NCBI GenBank assembly: GCA_963745015.1
Contig: CAVUVU010000018.1
Location: 13,524 to 77,523, forward strand
DNA length: 64,000 nt
Reading direction: 5' to 3'
DNA from: an uncultured Candidatus Rokubacteria bacterium
GTDB taxonomy: Bacteria > Methylomirabilota > Methylomirabilia > Rokubacteriales > DASRDR01
This document shows positions 16,605 to 44,889 of this stretch, piece by piece (positions within the stretch are counted from its first letter, which is position 1; every line of letters starts with the position of its first letter). The position numbers were made by a program, and so were the translations under genes. Below the pieces are notes generated by a model. That model was not told where the DNA came from, did no database searches, and saw only the letters and a list, made by a program, of their open reading frames with translations.

Positions 16605-16623
16605 GCGAGACTCCGTTCGGGCC

Positions 16624-22567: not shown

Positions 22568-22998
22568 GGTGGCGAGACGCCTCCGGGCATGCGGACGCGC
22601 GTCCACATGTTGACGACGAAGGCCAGGGCGGCCGCCAGCTGCCCCAGTCCGCCGAGGGCGGCGAGCCAGGAGCCGCGGGTGCCCGCGGCGGCCGCGACCA
22701 GCTCACCAAGCACGCGCACGACCGTCGACGCGGTGAGCAGCCAGTAGACGAGCCAGGCGAGCGCGGGCCGATAGCGTGCATCATCCCGCGCTGGCCTGGG
22801 GAACATCCAGGTCGCCACCCCGAAGACCAGCGTGAGCATGAACCCGACCAGCACCAGGTGCACATGCGCGGTGATGAGTGGCCAGGGCACCGCGCGGCCG
22901 GCCAGGTTCACCACGACGGTGATGTACCCGCCGAGGACCAGCCCGAGGAGCAGGAACACGAAGCTCGTCTTGATGTACAGGCGGACCAGCGGCGTCAT
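22552..22998 (-). CDS. small 4-TM membrane protein with an H-x-H-L motif; last gene of the NO-type operon
   Basis: 148 aa. LITAHVHLVLVGFMLTLVFGVATWMFPRP resembles motifs in the NnrS-like and 12-TM proteins upstream. Confidence 0.6.
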   Translation of the reverse strand: MTPLVRLYIKTSFVFLLLGLVLGGYITVVVNLAGRAVPWPLITAHVHLVLVGFMLTLVFGVATWMFPRPARDDARYRPALAWLVYWLLTASTVVRVLGELVAAAAGTRGSWLAALGGLGQLAAALAFVVNMWTRVRMPGGVSPPQPPR

Positions 22999-23126
22999 GG
23001 CGACCTCGCGGTCAGGGCTCCCGATGGTGGCGGGGAATCGGACTCGAGCCGAGACATCAGCTCATGACGGCTCCGACCGCGGCCAGCATAGCACGCCGCC
23101 GGCGGGGGCGACGGCCGCCGGCGGGC

Positions 23127-24539
23127 TCAGGAGACGGCGATGCGCGCCGGCGTCCAGGGCGGGTCGAACGTGAGGGACACGTCGACGTGCTCGACGCCGG
23201 GAATCCCGAGCACCGCGCGCCGCACCCAGTCGAGCATCACCTCGTGAAGCGGGCAGCCCGCCGCCGTGAGCGTCATGGTGATGCGGACGGTGCCTCCCGC
23301 GATCCCGACGTCGTAGATCAGGCCCAGGTCGACGACCGAAAGCGAGAGCTCCGGGTCGAGGACTGATCGCAGGGCGTCGGTGACCTGCTCCGGGGTCACC
23401 GGGACATCGGAGCCGCCCGCCATCGCGACCAGCCCCGTGGGCGCCGTAGGTCCCGGGCCCGGTTGATAGACGCATCCCGGGTCCTCGGCCAGTGGGTCTC
23501 CCGTCGCTGCGTAGGCCCGAGCTCGGCTGCCGCCGCAGTGGGTGCGGTACTCGCAGCGGCCGCAGCGGCCGCCGAGCCGCGCCGGGTCGCGGAGCGCGCG
23601 GAAGAGCGGATCCTCCCGGTAGACGGTGACGAGGTCCTGGTCCCGCACGTTCCCCACCATGAGCGGCAGGAACCCGCTCGGGCAGATCCGGCCGAGGTGG
23701 TCGATGAAGACGAAGCCGTTGCCGTCGGTCACGGCGCGCCGGGGACGCCCGATGGCATCGGGCCGTGGGCGGGCCGCCGTGACGGCACCATCCGCCGCCG
23801 GCGACGCCAGCCGCGCGGCGCGGCGGCGCGTCGCGACGACGCGGAGGTAGTGCGGGGCCTCCGTGGTCTTCACCCCGAACGGGGCGTGCTCGGCGAGTGC
23901 CGCCGCCCAGTGGAGCACGCCCTCGATCTCCTCCGCCCGGAGCGTCTGACTCATCTGTCCGCGCCCCACCGGGATCAGGAAGAAGAGCGCCCAGAGCGTC
24001 GGCTGGATGGCCTCGAGCTCGGGGACGAGGCCGGGGAGCTCGTCCACCGTCTGCCGGCACACCGTGGTGTTGACCTGAAGCGGGATGCCCAGCTTCTTCG
24101 CGCGATCGAGGATGCGCATCGTGAAGCGATGCGAGCCCCGCACGCCCCGGAAGGCGTCGTGGGTCTCGGGCGTGGCCCCGTCGAGACTCACCGCCAGTCG
24201 CGCGAGTCCGGCGTCCCGCAGGGCCCGCAACCGCTCCTCGGTCACCGCCCCGGTCCCGCTCGGCGTCACGGAGACCGACACACCCCGCCGCGATCCGTAG
24301 GCCACGAGGTGCGCGAGGTCGGGGCGCCGGAAGGGATCGCCACCCGTGAGGACCAGGATGGGCGGGGGGCTACCGAATCCGGCCACGCGGTCGATCAGGC
24401 GACGTCCCTCCTCGGTCGTCAGCTCGCCAGAATCGCGATGGGGCGCCGCCTCGGCGCGGCAGTGGACGCAGGCGAGCGCACAGGCCCGGGTCGTCTCCCA
24501 GATGACGATGAAGGGAGCCTGCTCGAACGGACTGGTCAT
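23127..24539 (-). CDS. radical SAM/SPASM-domain enzyme fused to a C-terminal DUF59 (MIP18/SufT-like) domain
   Basis: FIVIWETTRACALACVHCRA (CxxxCxxC), SPASM-type GRCGRCEYRTHCGGSRARAY, and a C-terminal LDPELSLSVVDLGLIYDV...TLTAAGCPLHEVM...FDPPWTP (DUF59). Start at ATG 24539, overlapping the upstream stop (ATGA). Confidence 0.8.
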   Translation of the reverse strand: MTSPFEQAPFIVIWETTRACALACVHCRAEAAPHRDSGELTTEEGRRLIDRVAGFGSPPPILVLTGGDPFRRPDLAHLVAYGSRRGVSVSVTPSGTGAVTEERLRALRDAGLARLAVSLDGATPETHDAFRGVRGSHRFTMRILDRAKKLGIPLQVNTTVCRQTVDELPGLVPELEAIQPTLWALFFLIPVGRGQMSQTLRAEEIEGVLHWAAALAEHAPFGVKTTEAPHYLRVVATRRRAARLASPAADGAVTAARPRPDAIGRPRRAVTDGNGFVFIDHLGRICPSGFLPLMVGNVRDQDLVTVYREDPLFRALRDPARLGGRCGRCEYRTHCGGSRARAYAATGDPLAEDPGCVYQPGPGPTAPTGLVAMAGGSDVPVTPEQVTDALRSVLDPELSLSVVDLGLIYDVGIAGGTVRITMTLTAAGCPLHEVMLDWVRRAVLGIPGVEHVDVSLTFDPPWTPARIAVS

Positions 24540-25840
24540 GGCCGCGCCGGGAGCGCAGGGGCGTCCCGGCCCGCGACGCAGGGGCGCAGGTGCCACAGCG
24601 TGCGCCCAAGGGCCGCGGCGAACGCCAGCGCGCCAATGCCCACGATCGTCCCGGCCACCGCGATGGCCGCAGGCGCGCCAGCAGCCACGGTGGCGGCGAG
24701 GCCAAGGGTCCCGGCGGTGAGCAGCCCGTAGGCGAGCCGCTCGCCGGCCGGCCACGAGAGCTGGGCGACCGTGGGGACCGGCTCACGCCCGGCCCGCGGC
24801 GCGTAGACGCGGTACCAGACCAGGAACGGCACGATCTTGAGCATCATGCCGACGATGGTCAGCGAGGCCCAGCCGCCGAGCGCCAGGACGGCATACGCCA
24901 GCGCCATGCGCGGCCCGGACCCGACGCCGAGCGCGAACACCAGTCCCAGGATTCCCAGCGGCGCGAGGCACGCCGTGCCGGTGAGGACGAATCGTAGTCC
25001 CCAGTCGAGGGTCGGCCGCTTCCGCCGCCGGGCAAAGCCCACGACCCACCACACGTGAACCCCGAGCACCACCGCGACCAGGACGGCGCCCGGCACCACG
25101 AGCGCGGGCCGACCCAGCGCGAGCCCCAGGGCAACGGCGGGCACGCCGAGGCCCAGGCCCCCGAGCTGGACGGAGGCGCCCCAGCCGCCTGGCTCCGGCG
25201 CGAGGAGAAACATCGGATACACGCGCGCCGCGACGGCCACGATCATGGGGGCGATCCAGCCCAGGAGCGCCAGGTGGAAGTGGGCGTGCACGGCCCCGAG
25301 CGGCCCGCCCGGGAACACGTGCGCTCCGTGGGTCATCGCCAGCGTGAGCCCGAACGCGACCGTGAGCGTAAGCCCCCCGAGCGCGAGCGCGATCCCGCGG
25401 GCCGTGAAGGACCAGCGGGCCAGCCCGCGCAGGCTCAGGGCCACGTTGATCACGTGGGCGAGGATCCCGCCTCCCACCAGCGCGGCCGCCCACGAGAGGC
25501 CATCCCAGCTACCGATCCAGAAGTGGCTGACCATCCCGAGGATCCCGGCCGCGAGCCCCGGGAGCTGCCAGAGCGCGAGGCGCTCGCTGTAGAGCGGCCG
25601 CTCGATCACGACGGGGATCAGCTGGTAGCTCGCGCCCATGATGGCCAGCGTGATCCAGCCCAGCGTGACGACGTGCGTGAGGGCCAGGAGGCGCGGATGG
25701 TAGTAGTGCCCGGCCAGCGCCGGGGCCAGCCCGGGGAGCGCGAGGGCAGCCAGGACGAAGGCGGCCGCGGCCGTCACCAGGTAGGCGAGCGGCAGCGTCA
25801 CCGACGGGGCGCGCCCCGAACGCCCGCCCTGCGGGATCAT
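24536..25840 (-). CDS. His-rich polytopic (about 12 TM) membrane protein, distantly haem-copper-oxidase/NnrS-like
   Basis: 434 aa from ATG 25840. Motifs: GHYYHPRLLALTHVVTLGWITLAIMGASYQLIP and GAVHAHFHLALLGWIAPMIVAVAARVYPMF. ATGA overlaps occur at both ends. Confidence 0.65.
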   Translation of the reverse strand: MIPQGGRSGRAPSVTLPLAYLVTAAAAFVLAALALPGLAPALAGHYYHPRLLALTHVVTLGWITLAIMGASYQLIPVVIERPLYSERLALWQLPGLAAGILGMVSHFWIGSWDGLSWAAALVGGGILAHVINVALSLRGLARWSFTARGIALALGGLTLTVAFGLTLAMTHGAHVFPGGPLGAVHAHFHLALLGWIAPMIVAVAARVYPMFLLAPEPGGWGASVQLGGLGLGVPAVALGLALGRPALVVPGAVLVAVVLGVHVWWVVGFARRRKRPTLDWGLRFVLTGTACLAPLGILGLVFALGVGSGPRMALAYAVLALGGWASLTIVGMMLKIVPFLVWYRVYAPRAGREPVPTVAQLSWPAGERLAYGLLTAGTLGLAATVAAGAPAAIAVAGTIVGIGALAFAAALGRTLWHLRPCVAGRDAPALPARP

Positions 25841-26403
25841 GCCGCGGGGCCGCCCCGCCAGATCGCGATCCGGACGAGCCCCGGCTCGGGCTCGTCGGTT
25901 GCGTGCCGGCAGCCGCGCTCCTCGAGCTGCGGGTACAGGAAGAGGGGCCGCCGGTGATGGAGGACCTCGAGGCGCTGGCCAGGCGCCAGGGCCTCGACCG
26001 CCTCGAGGACGCGCACCATCGGCAGCGGCGGCTCGAGTCCCCGCACGTCCAGCCGGACCGGGACCTCGGGCGCCCGCGGGGCGGCCTCGGCCACGCCCCC
26101 CGCCGTCACGTGAGACGGGGACACCCCCGGCGGGTCGGTCGTCGCGTCGTCGCGAAAGAACCACACCCGCCAGTCCGTGGCCTCATCCGATTCCGTCCAG
26201 TGCGCGAAGCCGCGGCGAGCGAGGACGCGGTAGAGCGGGACCGGCTCGAATGGCGCCCGCAGGACCAGCACGCCGTCGGGCTGCAACGCATCGACCGCCG
26301 CCATGATTCGGGCGAACGGCTCGCGACCCTCGCGAAGGTCCTCGCGGACGTCGAGGTAGACGCGTGCCGCCTCGGGGAAACGGACGAGGGCCGCGGGCCT
26401 CAT
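25837..26403 (-). CDS. tandem DUF2249 (TusA-like fold) domain protein
   Basis: LDVREDLREGREPFARIMAAVDALQPDGVLVLRAPFEPVPLYRVLARRG and LDVRGLEPPLPMVRVLEAVEALAPGQRLEVLHHRRPLFLYPQLEERG. Start at ATG 26403. Confidence 0.7.
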   Translation of the reverse strand: MRPAALVRFPEAARVYLDVREDLREGREPFARIMAAVDALQPDGVLVLRAPFEPVPLYRVLARRGFAHWTESDEATDWRVWFFRDDATTDPPGVSPSHVTAGGVAEAAPRAPEVPVRLDVRGLEPPLPMVRVLEAVEALAPGQRLEVLHHRRPLFLYPQLEERGCRHATDEPEPGLVRIAIWRGGPAA

Positions 26404-26675
26404 GTCGCGGAGGGCACCACGAGGGGCTCCAGCGCGCACAGCAGCGTCTTGACTGGAATGCCGGCCGAGGCCGCGGCCTGCGCGAGCGTCAGGTGCCCGC
26501 CGCAACAGGCGTCGATCCCGAAGCGCTGCAGGATCATGAGCCCGTACGCCGACCGGAGCACGGCTTCCGCCACCGTGTCCTCGGGCACCAGGGCGGGCGA
26601 GCGCGCCGTGGTCCCCGCGGCCGGGGGGTTCGACGACGTTCCGTGACGCCATCCACATCCGCAGGACTGACTCAT
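26400..26675 (-). CDS. ScdA_N/DUF542-type domain protein (the N-terminal domain of RIC/YtfE proteins, standing alone)
   Basis: AEAVLRSAYGLMILQRFGIDACCGGHLTLAQAAASAGIPVKTLLCALE matches the GIDFCCGG...L.EA motif as I recall it. Confidence 0.65.
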   Translation of the reverse strand: MSQSCGCGWRHGTSSNPPAAGTTARSPALVPEDTVAEAVLRSAYGLMILQRFGIDACCGGHLTLAQAAASAGIPVKTLLCALEPLVVPSAT

Positions 26676-26722
26676 GGACTGGTCCTCCTCGATTCCAGCC
26701 TAGGGCAGGCGTGCACCCGCAC

Positions 26723-26740
26723 GTATGATCCGCGTCATAC
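26723..26740. promoter_or_regulatory. FNR/Dnr-type box GTATGA-N6-TCATAC
   Basis: GTATGATCCGCGTCATAC overlaps the NnrS-like stop codon. It is centred about 56 nt upstream of the ScdA_N ATG (26675). Confidence 0.5.
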
Positions 26741-28030
26741 AGCCGCCCGGTGGCACATGACGCCAAGGACATTCGCCGCGAGGCACGCCAGTGCGACCCA
26801 CACCAGCAGCCCTGACAGCGGCACAAGCGGCAGGACGGCCTCCGGACCGTAGTCGGCCAGAACCTCCGCCGTCCGAATGAGAACGCCCCCCAGGAGCATC
26901 CAGAACGCCACCCCGCGGAGCCGCGGCCAGGGCAACGGAGAGCCCTCGATGGCCGGAACCAGCCGGAATCCCATGCTCACCACCATCGTGGTGAGCACCC
27001 CCACCGTGACCAGATGTCGCAGCGCGTCAGCAATAAGGCTCAAGGGAGTCCCGGTCCACGCCACGGCAGCCGCGCCGATCGACCCCGCCGCGGCGACGCT
27101 CGCCGCCAGCATCGCCATCCGAAAGAGCCAGGTCTCCGGCCCGCCGCGGGCGGCCATCGGCAGGGCGCCCGGGGCGCCTCGGAAGGCGCCGCCGCGCAAC
27201 GCGACCACCCCCACCGTCGCGAGAACGACCGCCTCCCCGGCCCGCTCGAGCGCCACCCGCGTCCCGCCGGACCACGGCCCGGCGAAGCCCACTCCCGCGA
27301 GGACGACACCCAGGCCAAGTGCCCCCGGAGCCATCCGGGCCAGGGCATCGGGCACTCGCCATCGGGGAACGTGCATCGGCCCGGCCCGGACGACGACGCC
27401 CACGATCCATCCGAGCACGCCCCCGTAGATCGCCATCACGTGCGCCGCCCCCATCCCGCCGGGGTCGGGGCCGCCGCCGAAATCGCCGCTCGCGAGCGCC
27501 CGCGCGCGGAGGCCCGCCTCGACGACGAGGGCGAGGACGAGCCAGGCCGTGGCCGCGGTCAGGTACGTCCGCGTGAGCCGGAGGTGCGGCGCACCGAGGG
27601 CTCGCATCACCCAGACAGCGAAGAGCCCGAAGGCGAGCGCCTGGAGAAGCGCGGCCGCCACGGCGAGCACGGCGACGCCGGCGATGGCGCCGGTGATGCG
27701 CAGCCCGAGCGCGGTGCCGAGCGCGCCCGCGAGCCACGGAGTCAAGGGCGTCGCGGCCACCGGCCGTCCGGCGAACCGCGGGACGAGGTGATGGGCCACG
27801 CCGACGATCAGCGTCCCGAAGAAGCCGAAGGCCTGGAGATGGGCGTGGAGCCAGACGGACTCGGCCGACACCGGGCCGCCGCCCCAGTGGAGCCGCACGA
27901 GCATCCAGGTCCCGAGCGGCGTCCCGACCACGAGCGTGGCCGCCAGGGCGATCAGCCCGAACGGCCGATAGACGGGCGGCTCTCGCACAGACAGGGCCGG
28001 GCCGGACAGCATCGATGCCAGGACGGGCAA
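26735..28030 (-). CDS. NnrS-family-like haem/copper membrane protein
   Basis: 431 aa, about 12 TM. VWLHAHLQAFGFFGTLIVGVAHHLVPRFAGRP parallels the NnrS WH.HEM.FG...GFLLTA.P.WTGRP motif. A later RHLVTVGVLTTMVVSMGFR segment is also present. Confidence 0.7.
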   Translation of the reverse strand: MPVLASMLSGPALSVREPPVYRPFGLIALAATLVVGTPLGTWMLVRLHWGGGPVSAESVWLHAHLQAFGFFGTLIVGVAHHLVPRFAGRPVAATPLTPWLAGALGTALGLRITGAIAGVAVLAVAAALLQALAFGLFAVWVMRALGAPHLRLTRTYLTAATAWLVLALVVEAGLRARALASGDFGGGPDPGGMGAAHVMAIYGGVLGWIVGVVVRAGPMHVPRWRVPDALARMAPGALGLGVVLAGVGFAGPWSGGTRVALERAGEAVVLATVGVVALRGGAFRGAPGALPMAARGGPETWLFRMAMLAASVAAAGSIGAAAVAWTGTPLSLIADALRHLVTVGVLTTMVVSMGFRLVPAIEGSPLPWPRLRGVAFWMLLGGVLIRTAEVLADYGPEAVLPLVPLSGLLVWVALACLAANVLGVMCHRAAV

Positions 28031-28050
28031 CCAGGCGGGGGCGCCCTGGC

Positions 28051-28513
28051 CTACCGCGCCTCGTCGAGCCGGTACAGGGCATGGCAGGCCACACAGCTCC
28101 CCGTCACCCCGGCCAGCCCCCGGATGGCGTCGTCACGCGTGCCCCCGGCCTTGATCCGGTCTGCCAGGTCGTCGAATGCCCGGTGGGCCTGCAACCCGAG
28201 CTCGCGAAAGGCGGGCAAGAGCTGCCGCATCATCGCCGGGTCCATCTCCCGGCCATCGCGGTCCCGGCGGCCCGCGCGGCCTTCTCGACGGCAACCAGGT
28301 CGTTCGCCGCAACGCCGCGGAGAATGCCGTTGACGGACTCGAGCATGTGCCGCATCTCGGCGAGGACCTTGTCGCGAGCCTGCGGCGGCAACGTGAGTCG
28401 CTGTCGCGGGTCTCCCGGGGCCTGGCTGTTGCCGGGGCCCGCCAGCTCAGCATGATGCCGAGGACCACGAGAATCGCCGAGATTGTGCGCGGAGCGACTG
28501 CGCCACGTCGCAT
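28051..28513 (-). CDS. cytochrome c-prime-like four-helix haem protein (C-terminal CxxCH); two frame breaks
   Basis: AAGGAGG lies 5 nt before ATG 28513. Signal peptide: MRRGAVAPRTISAILVVLGIMLS. Middle part, in a second frame: LPPQARDKVLAEMRHMLESVNGILRGVAANDLVAVEKAARAAGTAMAG. End part, in a third frame: MDPAMMRQLLPAFRELGLQAHRAFDDLADRI...GSCVACHALYR. The switches are near 28445 and 28252. Confidence 0.6.
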
Positions 28514-29183: not shown

Positions 29184-30679
<1,496 letters not shown>

Positions 30680-32486: not shown

Positions 32487-33116
32487 ATGGACCTGGACGC
32501 GCTCCTGAGCAACACGGCGGACGGCGTATGCGCCATCGGCGGCGATGGGCGGATCGTGTTCTGGAACCGGTCGGCCGAGCGTCTGCTCGGCTACGCGGCC
32601 CGCGAGGTCGTCGGGAAGCCCTGCTGCGACGTCTTCGTCGGCCGAGACCCGGCCGGCAACCGCCTCTGCTATCAGGGGTGCCACGTGCAGACGCTGGTGA
32701 AGCGGGGAGAGGCCGTCGAGCACTTCCAGATGGCCACGCGCACGAAGGCCGGCCGGCCGGTGTGGCTCGACATCAGCATCCTCGCCGTCCCCGGGGCGCG
32801 CCGGGACGCCGCGACGACGGTCCACCTTTTCCGGGACGTCACGACCGCCCACGAGGTGGAGACGCTCGTGCGGGAGCGCCTCGCCCAGGCTCAGCCGGCC
32901 GCTTCGCCGGACGGGGCGCCGCCGCCGGAGCTGACCCGGCGGGAGATCGAGATCCTGCGGCTGCTGGCCGCGGGCGCCAGCACCCGGGCCATGGCGGAGC
33001 GCCTGCACGTGAGCCCCGCCACCGTCCGGAACCATGTCCAGCACATCCTGGAGAAGCTCGGCGTCCACAGCCGGCTCGAGGCGGCGGCCTACGCGACCCG
33101 CCGCGGGCTAGTCTGA
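32487..33116 (+). CDS. PAS-domain / LuxR-type HTH transcriptional regulator
   Basis: PAS: ADGVCAIGGDGRIVFWNRSAERLLGYAAREVVGKPC...RTKAGRPVWLDISI. LuxR HTH: LTRREIEILRLLAAGASTRAMAERLHVSPATVRNHVQHILEKLGVHSRLEAAAYA. Confidence 0.85.
   Translation: MDLDALLSNTADGVCAIGGDGRIVFWNRSAERLLGYAAREVVGKPCCDVFVGRDPAGNRLCYQGCHVQTLVKRGEAVEHFQMATRTKAGRPVWLDISILAVPGARRDAATTVHLFRDVTTAHEVETLVRERLAQAQPAASPDGAPPPELTRREIEILRLLAAGASTRAMAERLHVSPATVRNHVQHILEKLGVHSRLEAAAYATRRGLV
32953..33016. repeat. 64-nt exact repeat, copy 1 (inside the LuxR HTH coding region)
   Basis: TCCTGCGGCTGCTGGCCGCGGGCGCCAGCACCCGGGCCATGGCGGAGCGCCTGCACGTGAGCCC is identical to 34548-34611. The 23 nt upstream are also similar, with 4 mismatches. 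Confidence 0.85.
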
Positions 33117-34315: not shown

Positions 34316-34524
34316 CCGGGTTGGCTGAAGGCAGACAAGGCGCCGCCGGACTGACGAGAGCGCCCATCGCGGGCCTCGGTGCGCCCCCGACGCCCCATCG
34401 AGGAGGCTCTGGCGGAGGCGTGATGGAGAGCATGGACGGCACAGAGCCTTTCTCGTCATGCTCGAGGACCGCGTCGCGTGCCCGGTGTCCATGTACATCC
34501 ACTTGACGGGCGGCCGCCCGCGGA

Positions 34525-34611
34525 CCTGACCCGGCGCGAGCTCGACGTCCTGCGGCTGCTGGCCGCGGGCGCCAGCACCCGGGCCATGGCGGAGCGCCTG
34601 CACGTGAGCCC
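34525..34611 (+). pseudogene. LuxR-type HTH remnant (third paralogue, truncated on both sides)
   Basis: LTRRELDVLRLLAAGASTRAMAERLHVSP. Homology then stops abruptly. No PAS domain lies upstream. Confidence 0.6.
34548..34611. repeat. 64-nt exact repeat, copy 2
   Basis: Identical to 32953-33016 by direct comparison of the printed sequence. Confidence 0.85.
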
Positions 34612-34884
34612 GCTGGGGCTCCGCCGCCCCAGCGGGACCGTGCCGCCCCCCGGACCAGGTCGCATCGCAAGAACTCGCGGATCCGCAAGATGCGGAGTCC
34701 ATTGCACGAATCGACGGAGGCCTACCTCGAGCCACGGAGGGCCGCTCCAGGGAACGTCACTTGCAAACAATGGACACGGGCCGCACCGCCGCGGCGATGG
34801 CAGGGCGACGGCACAGGGAGGCCGCACGTGCGGGAGTGAGGCGGCCGGCGACGTGACGTTCGCGACCGGAGGAGGGTCAGTCAA

Positions 34885-35863: not shown

Positions 35864-35967
35864 TTGACCGTGCTCCGCCGCTTGCGCTAAGAAGGGCCGA
35901 CGAAGTTGCCGTATCAGCAGACGCATTCGATGTTGTGCCGCTGCCCCGCAGAAGGGGAGGGCGCCGT

Positions 35968-36936
35968 ATGGCGGGTTCGGCTCTGCGGATACGGGGTGCC
36001 GGGTCGGCACTCGGTGCCATCGTGCTGGCCGGCCTCTTCCTGGGCCTCGCCTCCTGCGGAACATCACCCCGGGCCGCGCGGCCGGCGCAACCGATTCCCG
36101 CCCCGCCCGAGGCCTACGCCGGGAGTGAAGCCTGCCAGCAATGCCACAAGGCGGAATTCGCCAAGTTCGGCACCACGAAGATGGGCCGGCGCTTCCTCCA
36201 CCAGCCTCAGGATCAGCGGGAGGCCCTCGCCTGCGAGAATTGCCACGGCCCGGCCGCGGCGCACGTCGATTCGGGCGGCAAGAAGAACACCCCCGGCCTC
36301 ATCTCCTTCATGAAGGGGGACCGGACACCGGTCGAGCAACGCACGGCCATGTGTCTCTCGTGTCACGAGAAGAACGCGCGGTTCTTCTGGGAGGGCAGCT
36401 CGCACGAGGCGCGCGATGTGACGTGCACGAACTGTCATCACGTGCATGAGAACCTGTCTCCCCGCAACCAGCTCGCCAAGCAGGATGAGATCCAGACGTG
36501 CGGCCAGTGCCACGCGGAGAAGCGCGCCCAGCAGCTGCGGCTCTCGCGCCATCCCCTCCTCGAGGGCAAGATGAGCTGCACCTCGTGCCACAATCCGCAT
36601 GGCACGGTCACGCCCCAGCTCCTCAAGGAGAACTCGGTCAACGAGACCTGCTACACCTGCCACGCCGAGAAGCGGGGTCCCTTCCTCTGGGAGCACGCGC
36701 CGGTCACCGAGAGCTGCACGAACTGCCACCAGCCGCACGGCTCCAACCACGAGGCGATGCTGAAGGTGAGGAAGCCGCGTCTCTGTCAGCAGTGCCACAT
36801 CGAGACCCGCCACCCGACACGCCCCTACGGCAATGACCCCGCATCGAAGAAGTTCGTGCTGGGTCGGGCCTGCAACAGCTGCCACGTGAACATTCACGGC
36901 TCGAACCATCCGTCCGGTTTCGCCTTCACGCGATAG
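35968..36936 (+). CDS. decahaem c-type cytochrome, MtrA/DmsE/PioA/MtoA-like, with a lipoprotein signal
   Basis: Ten CxxCH motifs (CQQCH, CENCH, CLSCH, CTNCH, CGQCH, CTSCH, CYTCH, CTNCH, CQQCH, CNSCH) in 322 aa. N-terminus MAGSALRIRGAGSALGAIVLAGLFLGLASCG has a lipobox (LASC). GAAGGGGAGGG lies upstream of the ATG. Confidence 0.85.
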   Translation: MAGSALRIRGAGSALGAIVLAGLFLGLASCGTSPRAARPAQPIPAPPEAYAGSEACQQCHKAEFAKFGTTKMGRRFLHQPQDQREALACENCHGPAAAHVDSGGKKNTPGLISFMKGDRTPVEQRTAMCLSCHEKNARFFWEGSSHEARDVTCTNCHHVHENLSPRNQLAKQDEIQTCGQCHAEKRAQQLRLSRHPLLEGKMSCTSCHNPHGTVTPQLLKENSVNETCYTCHAEKRGPFLWEHAPVTESCTNCHQPHGSNHEAMLKVRKPRLCQQCHIETRHPTRPYGNDPASKKFVLGRACNSCHVNIHGSNHPSGFAFTR

Positions 36937-36943
36937 GGGACCC

Positions 36944-39174
36944 ATGACGCCGGTAGGCGGGAGGTGGTGGGCAGCGGCGGCTGTGGCATCCCTCACGCTG
37001 GCGCTGGCATATCCCGCCGGAGCGCAGACCCCGCTGTTCGGCTTCAACGTGGAGGGTGAGCTCACTCTCGGCGGGCGGATCTACATCGATCGACCGCCAC
37101 CCGAGGAACGCTCGATCTTCGAGCAATACCGGGATCTGCCGGAGGCACCGTTCGGCGCCTTTAGGTTCCGGCTCTTCCGTCCCGACGAGAGCTACTCGCT
37201 CGATGTCGGAGGCTACAACATCGGGCAAGAGGATCAATCGTACTTCCTGTCGACGGGTCGTCTCGGTCGCTGGAGCTTGGACTTCGAATGGGATCAGATC
37301 CCCCACACCCTATCGACCGACGCCCGGTCGCTCTACACGGAGCCGTCCACGGGCGTGCTCTCCCTGCCCTCCCCGCGTCCGCCCCTCTCCGCGTACAATC
37401 TCGCTCCGTTCCAGGACGTCCGGACGGAGTGGGACGTGGCTCGCTTCTCCGTCACGGTGACGCCCACACTCGATCTCGACCTGAAGGCCGAGTACACGCT
37501 GATTCTCAAGGACGGCAACCGTCCCCTGAGCATGGCGTTCGGAAGCCCCGGAGGCAACTTCGCCGAGTTCATCCAGCCCATCGACCAGACGGTCCACGAC
37601 TTCCGCCTCCGCGCGAGCTATGCCGGTGAGGGCTGGCAGCTTCAGGGCAGCTACGCGCTCTCGATCTTCCAGAACGGGCTGGACTCGCTGACGGCGGCCA
37701 ACCCGTGCTTCGGGCTCCGCGCGCCCGCCCCGCCGGCCGGATGCGGCGCCGACGCCAACGGCGCCCCCGCCACGGGCCGGCTGTCCGTGGCGCCGAACAA
37801 CATGGCGCACACCATCGCGCTCGCGGGGGCAGTGATCCTCCCCCTGCGCACGCGGCTGTCAGCGAACGTCTCGTACAGCCTGCGCCTGCAGGACGACGAT
37901 TTCTTGCCGCATACGAACAATCCGGCGCTGGCCTCGGACCCGTCGCTGGCGCTGCCCAGCTCGAACCTGGACGGGATCGTCCAGACCGTGCTCTTCAACC
38001 TCAACGCGGTGAGCCGGCCGCTGCCGCCCCTGACCCTCACGGCCAAGTACCGGCTCTTCGATCTCATCGACGATTCCAAGGAACTGGTTTCCCGGGCCAC
38101 GTGATCAACGATCGCTCGATCGTCGATGAGCCGCGAGTCAACGGGCAATGGGGCTATCTCAAGCAGAACGCCGAGCTGGACGGCCGCTGGCGGTTCGGCG
38201 AGCCCGTCGCCCTCACCGTGGGCGGCGCCTGGGAGCGCTGGGACAGGGACGAGCATCGCGAGGTGCCCACGAGCAACGAGTACTTCGGCAAGGTGGCGCT
38301 CGACGTGACGCCGGTCGACTGGTTCCTGGGTCGCCTCACGTACATCCCGTCGTTCCGGCGGATTTCGGAGTACAACACCCAGGCTCACCTTCAGCACTCG
38401 GTCGTGGAGGACGATCCGAGCTCTCTGGCCGGCCAGGGCCAGTCGGTCCTCCTGCGCAAGTTCGACGAGAGCGACCGGGACCGCCAGCGCGTCGATCTGA
38501 TGCTGCAGTTCACGCCGGTCGACACGCTCACCATCAGCCCGATCGGCGGGTATCGCTACGACGACTACCTCAACTCCTCGCTCGGCCTGCAGAGCGTGGA
38601 GACGTGGACGGTGGGGGTCGACATCGGCTGGAGCCCGCGCGAGTGGCTCTCGTTCTCCATTGGCTACGAGTACGAGTTCATGGAGTCGCGCCAGCAGTCG
38701 CAGAGCCGGGAGCAGTCGGGCACCACAATCTTCGACTTCCCCGACTTCACCTGGACGTCGAAGAACGTCGACCGGATCCAGACCGTGTACGCCGGCATCC
38801 GCGCCACGCTGATGCCCAAGGTTCTCGAGTGGACGGTGGACCTGGCCTACTCGACCGCGAACGGCCAGGTGAACACCAGCAACCCCACCACGCCGACGAG
38901 CGGGACCCTGGCCCAGCGGACCAACGCGACCGCCAAGCCCTTCCCGGCCGCCGACGACTCGCTGATCCGGCTCGGGACCGCGATCCGGTATGCGTTCGCG
39001 AAGAGATGGACCGCGACGGTCGCCTATGCCTTCGAGAAGTTCGATGGCACGGACTTCAAGACCGATGGGCTCAACCCGTTCGTACCCGGCGTCACCTCGA
39101 TCTGGCTGGGCAGTGACGCACGCGACTACACGGCGCAGTACGTCACTCTCAGCCTCAGCTACCGGTTCGACTAG
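36944..39174 (+). CDS. MtrB/PioB-family-like outer-membrane beta-barrel protein; one frame break
   Basis: Signal peptide with ...LAYPAGAQT. It is long, Gly/Tyr/Asp-rich, with alternating beta-strand patterns, and ends ...AQYVTLSLSYRFD. It starts 7 nt after the decahaem gene. The switch is near 38085-38092 (…DDSKELV / FPGHVINDRS…). Confidence 0.7.
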
Positions 39175-39320
39175 CCTCCCGGAGGGTCGGCCTTCCAACG
39201 GTGGACGCGGGAGCCGAGGCCGAACTCCCCCGTCGTCCCCTGGAGACGAGGACCAGCGCAGGACACTACCGGCTGGGCTCAAGCGAGGCCGTGGTTAAGC
39301 ACGCGGGCCCCTCGCCTAGG

Positions 39321-39950
39321 TCAGAGGAGGCGATGGCGGGTCGCGTACGCCACGACCTCGAGGCGGCTGTGGACACCCAGCTTCCCCAAGATGTGCTGGA
39401 CGTGATTGCGCACCGTGGTCGGGCTCACATGGAGCCGCTGGGCCATCGCCCGGGTGTTCGCTCCGCTCGCGATCAGGCGCAGGATCTCGAACTCACGCGG
39501 GGTCAGCGGCAGCGGAGGGGCCGCTTCCGACGGTGCGGCCGGCGGAGTCTGGGCGAGGCGCTCGCGCACCAGGGCTTCGATCTCCTTCACCGCCGTGACG
39601 TCGTGAAACAGATGCAGGATGCTCGACGCGTCCGGCCGAGCACCAGGAACCTCGAGGATGCTGATCTGGAGCCAGACCGACTTTCCTGCCTTGGTGCGCG
39701 TCGCCATGGCGACGTGCTGGACCGGCTGGCGCAGCGTGACGAGCGTCAGAACGTGACATCCCCGATAGCAGAGCCGGTTTCCCGGGGCGTCGCGCTCTAC
39801 GAAGATTTCGCAGCTCAGGCGGCCCATGACCTCTCGGGCGGAGTAGCCCAGAATGTCCTCCGCGGACTGTGTCCAGAGCGCAATCTTGCCGCTCCCGTTG
39901 ACGCCACAGACCCCGTCGGCCGTCAGCCCGAGCAGTCTGTCCAAGTCCAT
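39321..39950 (-). CDS. PAS-domain / LuxR-type HTH transcriptional regulator (paralogue of 32487-33116)
   Basis: MDLDRLLGLTADGVCGVNGSGKIALWTQSAEDILGYSAREVMGRLSCEIF...GNRLCYRGCHV...LTPREFEILRLIASGANTRAMAQRLHVSPTTVRNHVQHILGKLGVHSRLE. GGAGG lies 5 nt before the ATG. Confidence 0.85.
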   Translation of the reverse strand: MDLDRLLGLTADGVCGVNGSGKIALWTQSAEDILGYSAREVMGRLSCEIFVERDAPGNRLCYRGCHVLTLVTLRQPVQHVAMATRTKAGKSVWLQISILEVPGARPDASSILHLFHDVTAVKEIEALVRERLAQTPPAAPSEAAPPLPLTPREFEILRLIASGANTRAMAQRLHVSPTTVRNHVQHILGKLGVHSRLEVVAYATRHRLL

Positions 39951-40406
39951 CCCGGCCTCCCGACTTCCAGTGGCTTCGGCGATCGGCCACCCTCTCGGGA
40001 ACCCGCTACGTGGCAACGCCCAACGGTCGTGCATCACCCCTGCCACGTGGGCCGGGCCTCGCCCTGAGCCGTTTTCGGGACCGCGATGGAGTGTCGTCTC
40101 GTCTCGACTGTCCCGAGGCTGCCTCACCTGGGGCGCCACGGTCTGACTTGCCGGATCTATTGAGGGAAGGAGCCGCCGGCGGTCCCGAGTCAGTGGGACT
40201 CCGATACCCCAGCGAGGCTGCGGCGCCCCAGCGTCGGACCGTGCCCCTGGGAGCGCTGTGTGCAAGGATGCGGAACCATTGTGCGAATCGACGGCGGTCC
40301 ACCACGGGGCATCGGAACGTGGATTGCACCGCACTGGGCCCGAGCGCCTCATGCGCACGGTTCAACAGCCCAGAGTTGGGCGAGCATTGTCGAAGGGAGG
40401 CAGTGG

Positions 40407-41466
40407 ATGCGAAGCGCGGTAGTGGTCACCGCCTGGCGGAGTGCCGTGGTGGTCCTGGCTCTCGTCCTGTGGGCGATGCCGGCCCTGGCCCAGAAGGCGC
40501 TGGTGAGCATCAAGACGGATCAGGCGCCGACGATCGACGGGACGGTCGACGCCGCGTGGAGAAAGCTCCCGCGTACAAGGTCGCCCTCGACGAGACCCCC
40601 TACAAGCCGGAGGGCTTCAAGGGGCTCACCAAGACCAACGTCACCATGAAGTCCATGTACGACAAGGACAGCATCTATCTCCTGCTCCAGTGGGCCGACC
40701 CGACCCGGAGCGTCGAGCGGAACCCGTGGGTCAAGCAGCCCGACGGCACGTGGAAGCAGCTCAAGGCGGCCGACAGCACGGGGCACGACAACACCTACTA
40801 CGAGGACAAGCTCGGGATCCTCTGGAACATCAACGCCGCGGGCTTCGACAAGAAGGGGTGCGACGTCGCCTGCCACAAGGCGCGGGGCGGCAAGATCGCG
40901 GGCATCGAGGACAAGTCTCCCGGCCGCAAGTACCTGGAGCCGGGCCAGACGGTCGACATGTGGCACTGGAAGGCCGTCCGCACCGGCCCCGTGGGTCAGG
41001 TCGACGACCAGTACATCGACGACACCAAGGACCCGACGAAGAATGCCGACTGGGGTCGCAAGGGCGACGCGAAGACGGGCGGCGGCTACGCCAACAACGT
41101 CAACAAGGACAAGACCGGGCCCGCCTGGATGAACAAGACGCCCAGCGAAGAGAACAAGTACTGGGTCCTCGACGACCAGAAGACGGAGTTCGTCGACACC
41201 TTCAAGCCCGGTGACGTGGTCGGCGGGATCGTCGTCGCGCCCTTCACCGGCTCGCGCGGGGACCTCGACGCCCGGGCCGTGTGGAAGAGCGGCACGTGGA
41301 CGCTCGAGGTGAAGCGCAAGCTCGTCACCACCGGTGAGAACGCCAAGGAGCAGGACGTCCAGTTCGACGATCTCAAGAAACCTACCACTTCGGGCTCTCC
41401 GTGTTCGACAACACCCAGATCAATCACATGTATCACAACGGCGCCCATCGGCTGACCTTCAAGTAA
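40407..41466 (+). CDS. periplasmic haem protein of the cytochrome c552 / ethylbenzene-dehydrogenase-gamma (EB_dh) domain type; two frame breaks
   Basis: GAAGGGAGG RBS. Signal peptide MRSAVVVTAWRSAVVVLALVLWAMPALA. IKTDQAPTIDGTVDAAW / EKAPAYKVAL...SIYLLLQWADPT...GCDVACH...MWHWKAVRT...WTLEVKRKL / YHFGLSVFDNTQINHMYHNGAHRLTFK. The switches are near 40557-40561 and 41378-41383. Confidence 0.6.
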
Positions 41467-41480
41467 CCGGCAACGCTCGG

Positions 41481-41507
41481 GCGCTCCCGCAAGGTCTGCG
41501 GGAGTGC
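41481..41507. terminator. hairpin between the c552/EB_dh gene and the tetrahaem operon
   Basis: GCGCTCCCGCA-AGGTC-TGCGGGAGTGC: an 11-bp stem with one mismatch and a 5-nt loop, followed by GATTCATCC. Confidence 0.45.
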
Positions 41508-41595
41508 CCGATTCATCCACGTAGCTTGACAGCCACAGACCCGCCGAGGAGGCGGAGGGATCAAGGGCGGGGGCTCGCAGCAGTGGCGGTCGACG

Positions 41596-42443
41596 ATGCG
41601 ATGGCTGGGCGTGGCCGCGGTGTCGGCCCTCGGGGTTGCCGGCTCGCAGGCCTCGCTGCCTCCGGAGTTCCAGACGGCGGATGCCCAGGCGCAGACGACC
41701 CCGGCGGCCAAGCCCGAGGTCAAACCGGACGCCCCGCCCGGTGAGGCGAAGCCGGAAGTTCCGAAAAGCGCCAAGCCACGGCCCCAGACCGCCACGGAGG
41801 CCGACGAGGCCCTCGCGAAGCTGATGGCCTCGCGGAAACCCGTCCGCGCCGCGACCGCACGAGGCCAGACGGCCGCCGAGGCGCCCGAGTTCAAGGTCAC
41901 GCCGCGCATGGACCGGATCCGCAACTACCCCTGCACCAAGTGTCACGACAACAAGTTCGTGGACCGCCGCGTGCGGGAGCTCCAGGACGAGCACACGAAG
42001 CTCGTGTTCGAGCACGGCGGCGGGCGGTTCTGGTGCTACGACGCCTGCCACAAGGGCACGGACATGGACAGCCTCATCTCCCTTCGCGGCCGGACGGTCA
42101 GCTACGACGAATCCTACAAGCTCTGCGGGCAGTGTCACTACCAGCGCCTGGACTGGTGCTTCGGCGGTCATGGCAAGCGGCAGGGGGCCTGGGAGAACCA
42201 GCGCGAGATCCCGATGGTCGCCGACGAGCTGAAGGTCGAAGACCGCAATCAGATGGATCGTGGGCAGGCGAGCGCGCGATCCTCAATTGCACCGAATGCC
42301 ACGATGCCCATTCACCGTCGATCAAGCCGTTCGAGCCGAGCCCGCCGCCGAAGGTCCGCGCCGGGCTCCGCCCGCCGGCTACGAAGCCCGAGCCCGAGCG
42401 AAAGATCTGGGAGCGACTGGCCGAACCGAAAGGGAAGCGCTGA
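41596..42443 (+). CDS. periplasmic tetrahaem c-type cytochrome with a Pro/Lys/Ala-rich linker; one frame break
   Basis: Signal peptide MRWLGVAAVSALGVAGSQA. Haem motifs CTKCH, CYDACH (as C-x2-CH: CYDACH reads C..ACH), CGQCH and CTECH. The last one is in the 41940 frame. The switch is near 42240-42260. Confidence 0.7.
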
Positions 42444-42694
42444 TGCCCGAGTCGCGAAGGGATCCCGGTCACGACCCGAACCTCAGCCGTCGCGACTTCC
42501 TGGCGAGGCGACTTCCCGGCTGGACTGCCGGGCTGTTCGGCGGTGGGGCGGCGGCCGCCCCGTCGCCGACGACCGCGGAGGCCGCCCCATCCGGCGGCGC
42601 CGGCTCCTTCGCCCCGCGAGACCTCACGCGGATCAGCCGTGACGGGGTGAAAGCCGCGCTTGCCCGCATCCGGGCGCAGCGAAGGGGACCCTGA
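42443..42694 (+). CDS. small (83 aa) ORF with a twin-arginine motif; looks like a duplicate of the FeS subunit N-terminus
   Basis: MPESRRDPGHDPNLSRRDFLARRLPGW...RDLTRISRDGVKAALARIRAQRRG. TGATG overlaps occur at both ends (42441-42445 and 42692-42696). Confidence 0.45.
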   Translation: MPESRRDPGHDPNLSRRDFLARRLPGWTAGLFGGGAAAAPSPTTAEAAPSGGAGSFAPRDLTRISRDGVKAALARIRAQRRGP

Positions 42695-43650
42695 TGGCGC
42701 CGAGCCCTTCGACGGCACCCGGAGGTCCGACGCTCACGCGTCGTGCCCTGTTCAGGCTCGCCGGCTTCCTGGCGAGCGTCGCCGCGCTCCTCGGCGGCCG
42801 CCGGGCCATCGCCCAGGCCGCGCGGGCGGCGGAAGCGGGCGCCGAATCGCTCGCCGACGCCTGGGGCGCGCTCCTCCAGCAGCAATACACGAGGATGACC
42901 CCCGAGGAAGTCCAGGCCGCCATCGGCCGCATCGAGCGACGGGCGAAACAGCGGCACGGGGCCGACATCAGCGTCGGGACGGAGCCCCCCTGGAGGGTGT
43001 GGTCTTCGGCTACGCCCTGAACATCTCCAAGTGCAAGGGTGTCCGGAAGTGCGTGGAGGCCTGCGTCGCCGAGAACAACCTGAGCCGCGATCCCCAGATC
43101 CAGTACATCCGGGTCCTGGAGATGGACCACGGGGACATGAACCTCCACCAGGCCGATCACTACTACGAGGCAGAGGCCGTGCCTCGGCCCGGCAAGTTCT
43201 ACCTCCCCGTCCAGTGCATCAGTGCGACAACCCACCGTGCGTCAAGGCGTGTCCGGTCGAGGCCACGTGGCAGGAGCGGGACGGCATCACCGTGGTGGAC
43301 TACGACTGGTGCATCGGCTGCCGGTACTGCATGGCGGCCTGCCCCTACTGGGCCCGCCACTTCAACTGGAGCGAGCCGACGATCCCCCCGGGTTCGCTCA
43401 ACACCGACACGCACTACCTCGGCAACCGTCCCGCCCGAGGGGCGTCGTCGAGAAGTGCACCTTCTGCATCCAGCGCACGCGGAAGGGGCGCCAGCCGGCC
43501 TGCCTGGAAGCGTGCCCGACGGGCGCGCGCACGTTCGGCAACCTGCTGGACCCCGAGAGCGACATCCGCTACGTGCTCGAGAACAAGACGGTCTTCCGGC
43601 TGAAGGAAGAGCTCGGCACCGAACCCAAGTTCTGGTACTTCACGGACTGA
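42694..43650 (+). CDS. Tat-exported 4Fe-4S cluster protein (NrfC/PsrB/HybA-like); three frame breaks
   Basis: Tat motif [12 protein letters not shown]. FeS motifs [47 protein letters not shown]...[11 protein letters not shown]. The switches are near 42985-42990 (C-run), 43216-43220 and 43428-43436. Confidence 0.7.
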
Positions 43651-43656
43651 CGGACC

Positions 43657-44889
43657 ATGCGCGCGCTCGCTGCCTTCTTCGCGGACAGGCTGCGACAGGT
43701 GTTCCGGGGCGGCCGCCTCTACTGGACCTGGGTCGCCGGGCTCGGCCTGGTAGTGCTGGTGGGGATCTTCTTCTACTGGCGCCAGCTGGAGCAGGGCCTG
43801 ATCGTCACGGGCATGAGCGACCAGGTGTCGTGGGGCGCGTACATCGCCAACTTCACCTACCTGGTGGGTATCGCCGCTGCCGCGGTCATGCTCGTGATCC
43901 CCGCCTACGTGTTCCACCGGGAGGACGTCAAGCACGTCGTCCTGATCGGCGAAGGCATCGCCGTGGCCGCGGTGATCATGTCCATCCTCTTCGTCGTGGT
44001 GGATCTCGGCCGCCCGGACCGCATCTGGCACATGATCCCCTGGGTCGGGCGCCTCCACTTTCCGGCCTCGCTGCTGGCGTGGGACATCGTCGTCCTGACC
44101 GGCTACCTCGTGCTCAACCTCACGATCCCCTTCTACATGCTCTTCAGCCGGTATCGGGGGCGGGAGCCGAGCGTGCGCCTGTACTTTCCGGCCGTGCTGG
44201 TCTCGATCGCCTGGGCCATCTCGATTCACACGGTCACGGCCTTTCTCTTCTCCTCGAACGTGGCCCGGCCCTTCTGGCACACCGCGGTGCTCGGACCGCG
44301 CTTCCTGGCCTCGGCGTTCACGGCGGGGCCGGCGTTGATCGTGCTCGCATTGCAGATCATCGACCGGAACACGCCGTTCAAGGTCCACTCCTCCGTGATC
44401 GACCTCATGGCGCTGATCACCACGGTGGCGCTCCAGATCAACCTCTTTCTCGTCGGGGCCGAGATCTTCACGGACTTCTACTTCCGCACGGAGGACGTCG
44501 CCGCCGCCACGTATCTGTACCTGGGCCTCGACGGCGCGAACAAGCTCGTACCGTGGATCTGGAGCGCCATCCTCCTGGACCTGGTGGCCGCGATCATGCT
44601 GACCGTCCATCCGCTGCGACGACGCCGGGTGTTCCTCAGCATTGCCTGCGTGCTCGCGATCGTGGGGGTGTGGATCGAGAAGGGGATGGGCCTCGTCGTA
44701 CCGGGATTCGTGCCGACACCGCTCGGCGAGGTGTTCGAGTACTCGCCCCAGTGGGGCGAGGTCTTCGTCTCCGCCGGAATTTGGGCGCTGGGCATGCTGA
44801 TCTTCACCACCCTGGCGAAGGCGGCGATCCCGATCGAGCTCGGCCAGATCCGGCGCCCCACGGCGTCGCCTCCGCCGGCCACACTCTAA
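43657..44889 (+). CDS. NrfD/PsrC-family polytopic membrane subunit (quinone-interacting)
   Basis: 410 aa, intact, about 10 TM. SWGAYIANFTYLVGIAAAAVML...DLGRPDRIWHM...LLAWDIVVLTGY is typical of the NrfD family. It starts 6 nt after the FeS gene. Confidence 0.8.
   Translation: MRALAAFFADRLRQVFRGGRLYWTWVAGLGLVVLVGIFFYWRQLEQGLIVTGMSDQVSWGAYIANFTYLVGIAAAAVMLVIPAYVFHREDVKHVVLIGEGIAVAAVIMSILFVVVDLGRPDRIWHMIPWVGRLHFPASLLAWDIVVLTGYLVLNLTIPFYMLFSRYRGREPSVRLYFPAVLVSIAWAISIHTVTAFLFSSNVARPFWHTAVLGPRFLASAFTAGPALIVLALQIIDRNTPFKVHSSVIDLMALITTVALQINLFLVGAEIFTDFYFRTEDVAAATYLYLGLDGANKLVPWIWSAILLDLVAAIMLTVHPLRRRRVFLSIACVLAIVGVWIEKGMGLVVPGFVPTPLGEVFEYSPQWGEVFVSAGIWALGMLIFTTLAKAAIPIELGQIRRPTASPPPATL

Follow-up and report, generated by a model that had tools for sequence, protein, structure and literature searches.

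A 64,000-nucleotide stretch of DNA from an uncultured Candidatus Rokubacteria bacterium (contig CAVUVU010000018.1; hereafter the window) carries two adjoining gene units that may together form a route for electrons between the quinone pool and the outside of the cell. The first unit, mtrA-mtrB-luxR, encodes a decahaem cytochrome, an outer-membrane barrel and a PAS-LuxR regulator. The second is an operon for a secreted haem protein of the EB_dh fold (EB_dh-c), a tetrahaem cytochrome, the product of a small open reading frame (ORF), a DsrO-like iron-sulfur (FeS) protein and a DsrP-like membrane subunit. Our analysis establishes the identities of these genes, their motifs, the conservation of each unit and the mobility of the first, and from these we infer that electrons are exchanged between the two units. 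According to the model, the quinone pool would exchange electrons with the DsrP-like/DsrO-like pair, which would pass them to the tetrahaem cytochrome and thence to soluble EB_dh-c, the putative carrier. In strains that bear the first unit, EB_dh-c would hand electrons to MtrA inside MtrB and so to an extracellular donor or acceptor, for example Fe, Mn or humics. Expression would probably be governed by the PAS-LuxR regulator, the gene of which shares its intergenic region with that of EB_dh-c. We give such a facultative chain, running from the quinone pool through the DsrP-DsrO-like pair, the tetrahaem cytochrome, EB_dh-c and MtrA in MtrB to the outside, an even chance of being correct.

The predicted MtrA-MtrB conduit and the PAS-LuxR regulator

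The mtrA gene (35968-36936, forward strand, with an alternative GTG start at 35935) encodes a decahaem c-type cytochrome of MtrA/MtoA size, with 322 residues and exactly ten CxxCH motifs. The protein scores 267.9 bits against TIGR03508, the model for DmsE-family decahaem cytochromes (cut-off 192), and its residues 51-319 align with Shewanella baltica MtrA (PDB 6r2q_A, E 2.6e-70). The ATG of mtrB (36944-39174, forward strand) follows 7 nt beyond the mtrA stop codon, and its product, an outer-membrane barrel of the MtrB/PioB family, has 743 residues once a 1-nt deletion at 38089 is repaired and terminates in LSLSYRFD at position 39174. The repaired protein scores 296 bits against the MtrB/PioB model TIGR03509 (cut-off 240), PF11854 matches each half of the frame-split gene product, and residues 78-741 align with residues 89-694 of the solved barrel 6r2q_B. 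A first reading of the DNA (the original prediction) had proposed a decahaem MtrA-type protein of this length with a barrel gene 7 nt downstream, and had asked for a profile search on the latter; both identifications are borne out, and the barrel passes that search. By homology, MtrA and MtrB are predicted to form a conduit of porin and decahaem cytochrome, like MtoAB and PioAB, that would carry electrons across the outer membrane.

A decahaem gene directly followed by a barrel gene is likewise found in MtoAB of Sideroxydans/Gallionella, PioAB of Rhodopseudomonas palustris and Shewanella MtrAB (6R2Q). MtoAB and PioAB also share with the window locus the lack of an MtrC/OmcA component. No MtrC/OmcA-type gene was found in the 64-kb window, which contains no other multihaem ORF and no match to the MtrC family, and neither a NapC/CymA ORF nor a gene for the high-potential iron-sulfur protein PioC was detected there, in agreement with what the original prediction had stated for these genes. 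The window locus differs from MtoAB and PioAB in that no gene for CymA/MtoC, MtoD or PioC lies nearby, and in that MtrA, at 322 residues with a short signal peptide, is devoid of the long N-terminal extension of PioA type that alphaproteobacterial homologues carry. Further differences are the lipobox of MtrA, the movement of the gene pair with the PAS-LuxR gene as a cassette, and the Rokubacteria/Methylomirabilota host; PioA/PioB homologues have been reported in Rokubacteria before (PMC10654088). The lipobox-like signal, LGLASC, is encoded within 35968-36060 and is common to a subset of Rokubacterial homologues, those at related loci L011, L013, L016, L017, L098, L112 and L127 (loci are cited by L number throughout). 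It suggests that MtrA is lipid-anchored, unlike the Shewanella protein.

The regulator gene (39321-39950, reverse strand) encodes Pfam PAS and GerE domains and is convergent with mtrB and divergent from the EB_dh-c gene; the convergent PAS-LuxR regulator that had been proposed is thus confirmed. The regulator gene is likewise found with mtrAB in L011 and the P0007 contig, and in L014 a PAS-LuxR gene that is 47% identical lies upstream of mtrA. The window holds a paralogue of the regulator at 32487-33116 (forward strand), together with a 107-nt fragment of the 3' end of the paralogue at 34505-34611, upstream of a gene for a CBS protein. The regulator and its paralogue have in common a C-x13-C-x2-CH motif within the PAS domain, which may sense metal or redox state.

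EB_dh-c and the DsrO/DsrP-like module

The second unit spans 40407-44889 and is a conserved five-gene operon, in the order EB_dh-c, tetrahaem cytochrome, small ORF, DsrO-like and DsrP-like protein. In Rokubacterial relatives it belongs to a shared chromosomal backbone, where it is followed by genes for a universal stress protein (USP), citrate synthase and malic enzyme.

The first gene of the operon (40407-41466, forward strand, with 1-nt deletions at 40558 and 41380) encodes EB_dh-c, a secreted protein of 353 residues that matches PF09459 with 156.8 bits across 2-235 of the 236 profile positions. That the gene encodes a secreted EB_dh-type haem protein had been foreseen; its haem motif is not CxxCH but CxxxCH (CDVACH, near 40860-40880), which is invariant in the family alignment. 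Sequence searches of the PDB with EB_dh-c returned chance matches only. An AlphaFold model of P0241, a homologue that is 95% identical, reached a pLDDT of 82, and Foldseek matched this model to NxrC of the Kuenenia nitrite oxidoreductase (7b04_C, E 1.5e-9) and to EbdC of ethylbenzene dehydrogenase (2ivf_C, E 2.5e-8). NxrC and EbdC are the haem-bearing electron-transfer gamma subunits of their enzymes, and the match of EB_dh-c to such subunits supports the proposed chain. The EB_dh fold, one haem per domain and a role in electron transfer are the features in common. EB_dh-c differs from these gamma subunits in being a stand-alone, secreted protein and in its invariant CxxxCH, which presumably binds haem covalently, as opposed to the non-covalent haem b of EbdC and NxrC. 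Genes for alpha (Mo) or beta (FeS) catalytic subunits were not found adjacent to that for EB_dh-c.

The periplasmic tetrahaem cytochrome c is encoded at 41596-42443 (forward strand, 1-nt deletion at 42260) and has a Pro/Lys/Ala-rich linker and the haem motifs CTKCH, CYDACH, CGQCH and CTECH. An alignment of 32 homologues shows that the three CxxCH motifs and the one CxxxCH motif are all conserved, along with four invariant histidines, and because the four haem sites are matched by four further histidines the cytochrome is assigned to the bis-His type. The CxxxCH motif lies at haem 2 (CYDACH, 42030-42050) and is invariant in the family; this uncommon motif is shared by EB_dh-c. The family numbers 259 homologues, and those that bear a name are all called 'hypothetical protein', save two with generic labels. 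The cytochrome matches none of the NrfB, NetB and DsrJ models and gives only chance matches to the PDB by sequence, and its AlphaFold model, at a pLDDT of 44.6, was unusable.

Between the genes for the cytochrome and the FeS protein lies a small ORF (42444-42694, forward strand) for 83 residues, among them an SRRDFL motif and a single short run of hydrophobic residues; the ORF overlaps both neighbours through TGATG at 42441 and 42691. L001, L002 and the less closely related L018 retain the ORF, the motif and both overlaps, with indels that stay in frame, and the ORF is annotated as an 81-residue gene in the complete 5.6-Mb genome of L176. Profile searches found no family match. The ORF is therefore considered to be real, given the conservation of its frame, its overlaps and its motif, and its product is a candidate Tat-like (twin-arginine) or membrane protein.

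The next gene (42694-43650, forward strand) encodes a four-cluster FeS protein with a twin-arginine export signal, of 319 residues after repair at 42987, 43220 and 43432. It matches PF13247 and falls just short of the DsrO model NF045797 (193.9 bits, cut-off 200), and scores 115 bits against NrfC, where the cut-off is 377.6. The last gene (43657-44889, forward strand) is intact and encodes a membrane subunit of the quinone-interacting NrfD family, with 410 residues and ten transmembrane segments predicted from hydropathy. This protein matches the PF03916 superfamily, passes the DsrP model NF045798 (401.6 bits, cut-off 350) and is far from passing that for NrfD (24.4 bits, cut-off 347.6); the PDB yields a weak and partial match to ActC of alternative complex III (ACIII), with E 1.9e-14. 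The original prediction had read the set as an NrfBCD-type module, and this part of it does not stand, since the membrane subunit is DsrP-like, the FeS subunit is nearest to DsrO and the NrfB and NetB models do not recognise the cytochrome. Its description of a translationally coupled set was accurate as to both TGATG overlaps, the small ORF (which is conserved), the intact subunit with ten transmembrane segments and the tetrahaem cytochrome, and needs amending in that one of the four haem sites is CxxxCH. From the families of its proteins, the second unit is predicted to be a periplasm-facing quinol/quinone oxidoreductase of the type known as DsrOh-DsrPh-tetrahaem.

A locus of that type, TMH1-DsrOh-DsrPh-tetrahaem, has been described from cable bacteria, where genes for DsrO and DsrP homologues and a tetrahaem cytochrome occur apart from dsrMK, with a small protein of a single transmembrane segment (PMC13047784). 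The function proposed for it is to carry electrons from quinone to periplasmic cytochromes; the same set occurs in other Desulfobulbales and in proteobacteria, and was earlier termed a 'candidate alternative complex III' (PMC13047784). Compared by description, the window operon shares with it a pair of DsrO and DsrP homologues that are encoded without dsrMK, and a bis-His tetrahaem cytochrome of the periplasm; the small ORF, with its short hydrophobic stretch, may correspond to the gene for the small membrane protein. It differs in that the window operon begins with EB_dh-c and adjoins MtrAB, and in that the motif of the small ORF is twin-arginine-like.

A second precedent is NetBCD, an Nrf-like complex that serves as the inner-membrane partner of MtrCAB in Aeromonas, where it replaces CymA (PMC8805035). 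As in Aeromonas hydrophila, a module of cytochrome, FeS protein and NrfD-family subunit stands beside an Mtr conduit in the place of CymA. The window proteins nevertheless fail the NetB, NrfB, NrfC and NrfD models, and the tetrahaem cytochrome is unrelated and has DsrO/DsrP-like partners. Membership of NrfBCD/NetBCD was rejected on these scores and because the cytochrome has four haems and is not a pentahaem protein of NrfB/NetB type. ACIII was likewise set aside, as no ActB-like (molybdopterin-like) subunit is present.

One electron-transfer chain or neighbouring units

The window has a G+C content of about 70%, and its nearest public relatives are metagenome-assembled genomes of Candidatus Methylomirabilota/Rokubacteria, with 84-92% nucleotide identity over the locus. 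Seven frame breaks fall inside the genes of the locus, over 5.4 kb (38089-43432), and were mapped with a frame plot of third-position G+C (GC3) and by tblastn with the intact L001 proteins: one in mtrB, two in the EB_dh-c gene, one in the cytochrome gene and three in the FeS gene, at the positions given above. One explanation is that the breaks are real and the locus is decaying into pseudogenes, so that mtrB and the genes for EB_dh-c, the cytochrome and the FeS protein yield nothing functional. The density of the breaks speaks for it, as the genes for the NrfD-family protein, USP, citrate synthase and malic enzyme beside them are intact. Yet each of the seven is the loss of a single base compared with L001 or L002, with no insertion, larger indel or in-frame stop among them, amino acid identity to intact relatives is 74-91% to either side of every break, and the GC3 periodicity persists. 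Moreover, genes elsewhere in the window are broken in the same manner. The NirK product (8900-10220, reverse strand) can be aligned with PDB 6tfd without interruption over its frame junction, a carboxylesterase at 28.6-30.5 kb gives a single Pfam match that runs over four junctions, and sulfatase and methyltransferase matches span junctions near 62169 and 31957, respectively. Across the whole window the missing bases are mostly G, further sites being at about 9294, 29373-30220, 31957 and 62169. Long-read contigs of relatives are similarly broken, with a split EB_dh gene in L175 and truncation of some MtrB homologues.

The single-base deletions thus look like systematic long-read error, and the frame breaks very probably stem from errors in assembling an unpolished long-read contig and not from locus-specific decay. 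Locus-specific pseudogenisation was rejected because of the like breaks in NirK, esterase, sulfatase and methyltransferase genes, and we regard a decaying locus as quite improbable. The original prediction had held that the locus would be dead if the breaks proved real; since they are spread over the whole window this does not apply, and the locus is probably not dead. It is also conceivable that the FeS, NrfD-family and cytochrome genes are the DsrJOP part of the dissimilatory sulfur complex DsrMKJOP, and unrelated to extracellular electron transfer. In favour of this, the membrane subunit exceeds the cut-off of the DsrP equivalog model, and the FeS protein, which is DsrO-like and Tat-exported, comes close to that for DsrO. 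However, dsrM, dsrK and dsrAB were not seen in the window or in the related loci inspected, and the cytochrome, with four haem sites of bis-His type, differs from trihaem DsrJ, matches no DsrJ model and has no detected site of the His/Cys type. Furthermore, DsrOP homologues with a tetrahaem cytochrome have been reported in organisms that have no sulfur metabolism (PMC13047784). We rejected DsrMKJOP membership, as DsrMK and DsrJ are lacking in the window and the inspected loci, and consider a sulfur-metabolic assignment very improbable indeed.

A more serious alternative to a chain through both units is that their adjacency entails no coupling: the cassette would have recombined beside an unrelated respiratory operon, MtrAB would have its partner elsewhere, for example in a Rieske/cytochrome b-NapC cluster or an ACIII as in other Rokubacteria, and the second unit would take part in some other redox reaction of the periplasm. 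A sizeable body of observations weighs in this direction and against a conserved link. By blastn against L011, the limits of the first unit (window 35934-39967, about 4 kb) equal those of a segment at L011 8984-13004, and in L011 and L012 the cassette stands by itself at a different locus, next to rve and IS110 transposase genes. A 36-nt direct repeat, at 34699-34734 and 40276-40311 (78% identity), brackets the segment from the CBS gene through mtrA and mtrB to luxR and may be a recombination scar, and fragments of the LuxR paralogue likewise bracket the cassette region; a repeat search around the cassette found no clear transposon ends. Conversely, the second unit is found without MtrAB. The closest relative, L175, is 92% identical at the nucleotide level from window position 40170 onwards (95% at the amino acid level for the cytochrome) and has the genes from EB_dh through the cytochrome, FeS protein and NrfD to USP, citrate synthase and malic enzyme but no MtrAB upstream, and L002 and L176 also carry the second unit alone. 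The core of cytochrome, FeS protein and NrfD-family subunit is widespread without MtrAB: SAR324 and Gemmatimonas have it in this form, and Lambdaproteobacteria have it together with EB_dh. When MtrB loci were surveyed by an alignment-based scan, which gave 84 loci (a single-protein scan found only three), a cytochrome of the window type was present at just one, L008, which is the L001 contig. The partners at these loci were Rieske/cytochrome b in 17 cases, NapC/NirT in 10 and an ACIII-like FeS protein with NrfD in about 8, and other Rokubacteria pair MtrAB with the same three kinds of genes. Nor is EB_dh-c tied to redox partners: among 80 genome loci with EB_dh-c, of which a few were covered by the full family scan and the others by the pattern of haem ORFs, 56 have no ORF with at least two CxxCH motifs within 6 kb (about six of these have genes for an FeS protein and NrfD close by), and at the Amphritea and Ramlibacter loci (L021, L083) the family scan shows no redox partner gene beside EB_dh-c. 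The adjacency of MtrAB and the second unit is, on this evidence, weakly conserved.

Other observations argue against chance adjacency. A metagenome contig whose MtrB is 75% identical has the same gene order, namely MtrA, MtrB, LuxR (reverse strand), EB_dh, cytochrome, FeS protein, NrfD, USP, citrate synthase and malic enzyme, and L001 has the genes of both units in a rearranged order. In L010 (8923-10470) a fragment of 52 MtrB residues and a fragment from upstream of EB_dh lie between the CBS and USP genes, so that both units were once present there and later deleted. EB_dh-c occurs in three other types of MtrAB cluster, and no gene for NapC, CymA, Rieske or ACIII was found within the 64-kb window. 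The original prediction had made conservation of the gene neighbourhood a test of its proposal; the neighbourhood does recur in L001, though rearranged, and in the one metagenome contig, whereas L175, L002, L176 and L011 do not have it. Its link between the quinone pool and the conduit is reasonable as a model and names the right gene families, and is weakened by the poor conservation of the adjacency. Uncoupled adjacency is in our view quite possible, if short of probable. The chain through both units draws support from precedent, as NetBCD serves MtrCAB and the DsrOhPh-tetrahaem set has been proposed to feed periplasmic cytochromes, and functional coupling of the two units is plausible from the sequences compared. 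Judging from its genomic contexts, mtrA-mtrB-luxR is a mobile cassette that joins different quinone modules, and because it is found alone elsewhere and MtrB loci have varied partners, the present pairing is considered to be lineage-specific.

ACIII-like sets proper lie near MtrAB homologues in L009 and L017. In L009 (9980-18025) a Rokubacterial MtrB homologue with 44% identity and no adjacent MtrA has as neighbours a two-component system of NarL type and the genes of an ACIII-like set (pentahaem cytochrome, Mo-like subunit, FeS protein and NrfD). Candidatus Manganitrophus/Manganitrophaceae (L119, L132) have MtrAB homologues with an MtrB identity of 41%.

A family of putative carriers and the organism

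EB_dh-c belongs to a large family, with 1,154 matches at E <= 1e-10, and its neighbourhoods bear on its putative role. In 24 of the 80 surveyed loci an ORF with at least two CxxCH motifs lies within 6 kb. In Photobacterium (L028, 9959-13882), EB_dh-c was seen by family scan to head an operon with an NrfB-like pentahaem cytochrome, NrfC, NrfD and a small CctA-like cytochrome, and matching five-haem and three-haem ORFs lie directly downstream of EB_dh-c in Vibrionaceae (L029), Psychromonas (L030) and Vibrio (L033). The Photobacterium operon is an analogue of the window operon with a true Nrf-type module as its basis. In Aestuariirhabdus (L024, family scan) EB_dh-c is followed by a fusion of an eight-haem domain with an FdnI-type cytochrome b, and L020, L023 and L026 have a similar eight-haem ORF of 700-780 residues in the equivalent position. 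An EB_dh-c homologue lies directly upstream of MtrA-MtrB in one Casimicrobiaceae genome (L056), and in Rokubacteria EB_dh-c is found within a cluster of Fer4_5, cytochrome c, multihaem, Rieske and cytochrome b genes. The more distant MtrAB clusters L013 and L017 contain EB_dh-c homologues with 48% identity that keep the invariant CxxxCH. A rule that EB_dh-c always stands beside redox partners was rejected, given 24 of 80 loci with multihaem ORFs, about six more with FeS+NrfD and none in Amphritea or Ramlibacter; the link of EB_dh-c with quinone modules is recurrent, not universal.

This raises the possibility that EB_dh-c proteins are widespread, hitherto unrecognised periplasmic carriers serving at least four kinds of quinone module (DsrOP-tetrahaem, NrfBCD-like, CbcL-like fusions of haem c and haem b domains, and Rieske/cytochrome b). 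In the window, such a carrier would bridge the DsrOP-tetrahaem module to the MtoAB-like conduit, and thereby provide a CymA-independent route for taking up or releasing extracellular electrons, which the mobile mtrAB-luxR cassette could switch on. We put this broader proposal forward tentatively, and think it rather unlikely to hold.

The direction of electron flow cannot be read from the sequence, as the original prediction also stated. We slightly favour electron uptake or Fe(II) oxidation, because the conduit has the MtoAB-like form without MtrC and its relatives keep company with Rieske/cytochrome b and ACIII. If the organism does oxidise Fe(II), a possible electron sink is NirK, the copper nitrite reductase noted above, which has an N-terminal cupredoxin domain and 6tfd as its closest PDB entry. 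Elsewhere in the window are genes for phosphoketolase and acetate kinase (11406-13743, reverse strand, and 16623-17827, forward strand), and several USP genes are dispersed through it. A reverse-strand cluster at 22588-28374 encodes ScdA_N/DUF2249 proteins, a His-rich membrane protein, a radical SAM enzyme, a COX1-like fragment and a small cytochrome with a C-terminal CxxCH (CVACH at 28095), and may relate to NO or haem metabolism.

The combination of genes had been put forward as undescribed. In view of NetBCD, the DsrOh-DsrPh-tetrahaem loci and the PioAB homologues already reported from Rokubacteria, that holds only in part: what is new is the placement of a DsrOh-DsrPh-tetrahaem-type module headed by EB_dh-c beside an MtoAB-type cassette, together with the recurrent link of EB_dh-c to several kinds of quinone module and the evidence for joint movement of mtrAB and luxR. 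The mobility of mtrAB as a small, regulated cassette is a caution against inferring pathways by adjacency alone. At the same time, our analysis suggests a role for two large families that have had none, the DsrOP-associated tetrahaem cytochromes (259 members) and EB_dh-c (more than 1,100), and makes the locus a testable candidate for the missing link between MtoAB and the quinone pool in organisms without CymA. Rokubacteria and Methylomirabilota are uncultured and abundant in soils and aquifers, and whether they exchange electrons with mineral Fe and Mn, and through which partner, bears on how iron cycling is interpreted from metagenomes.

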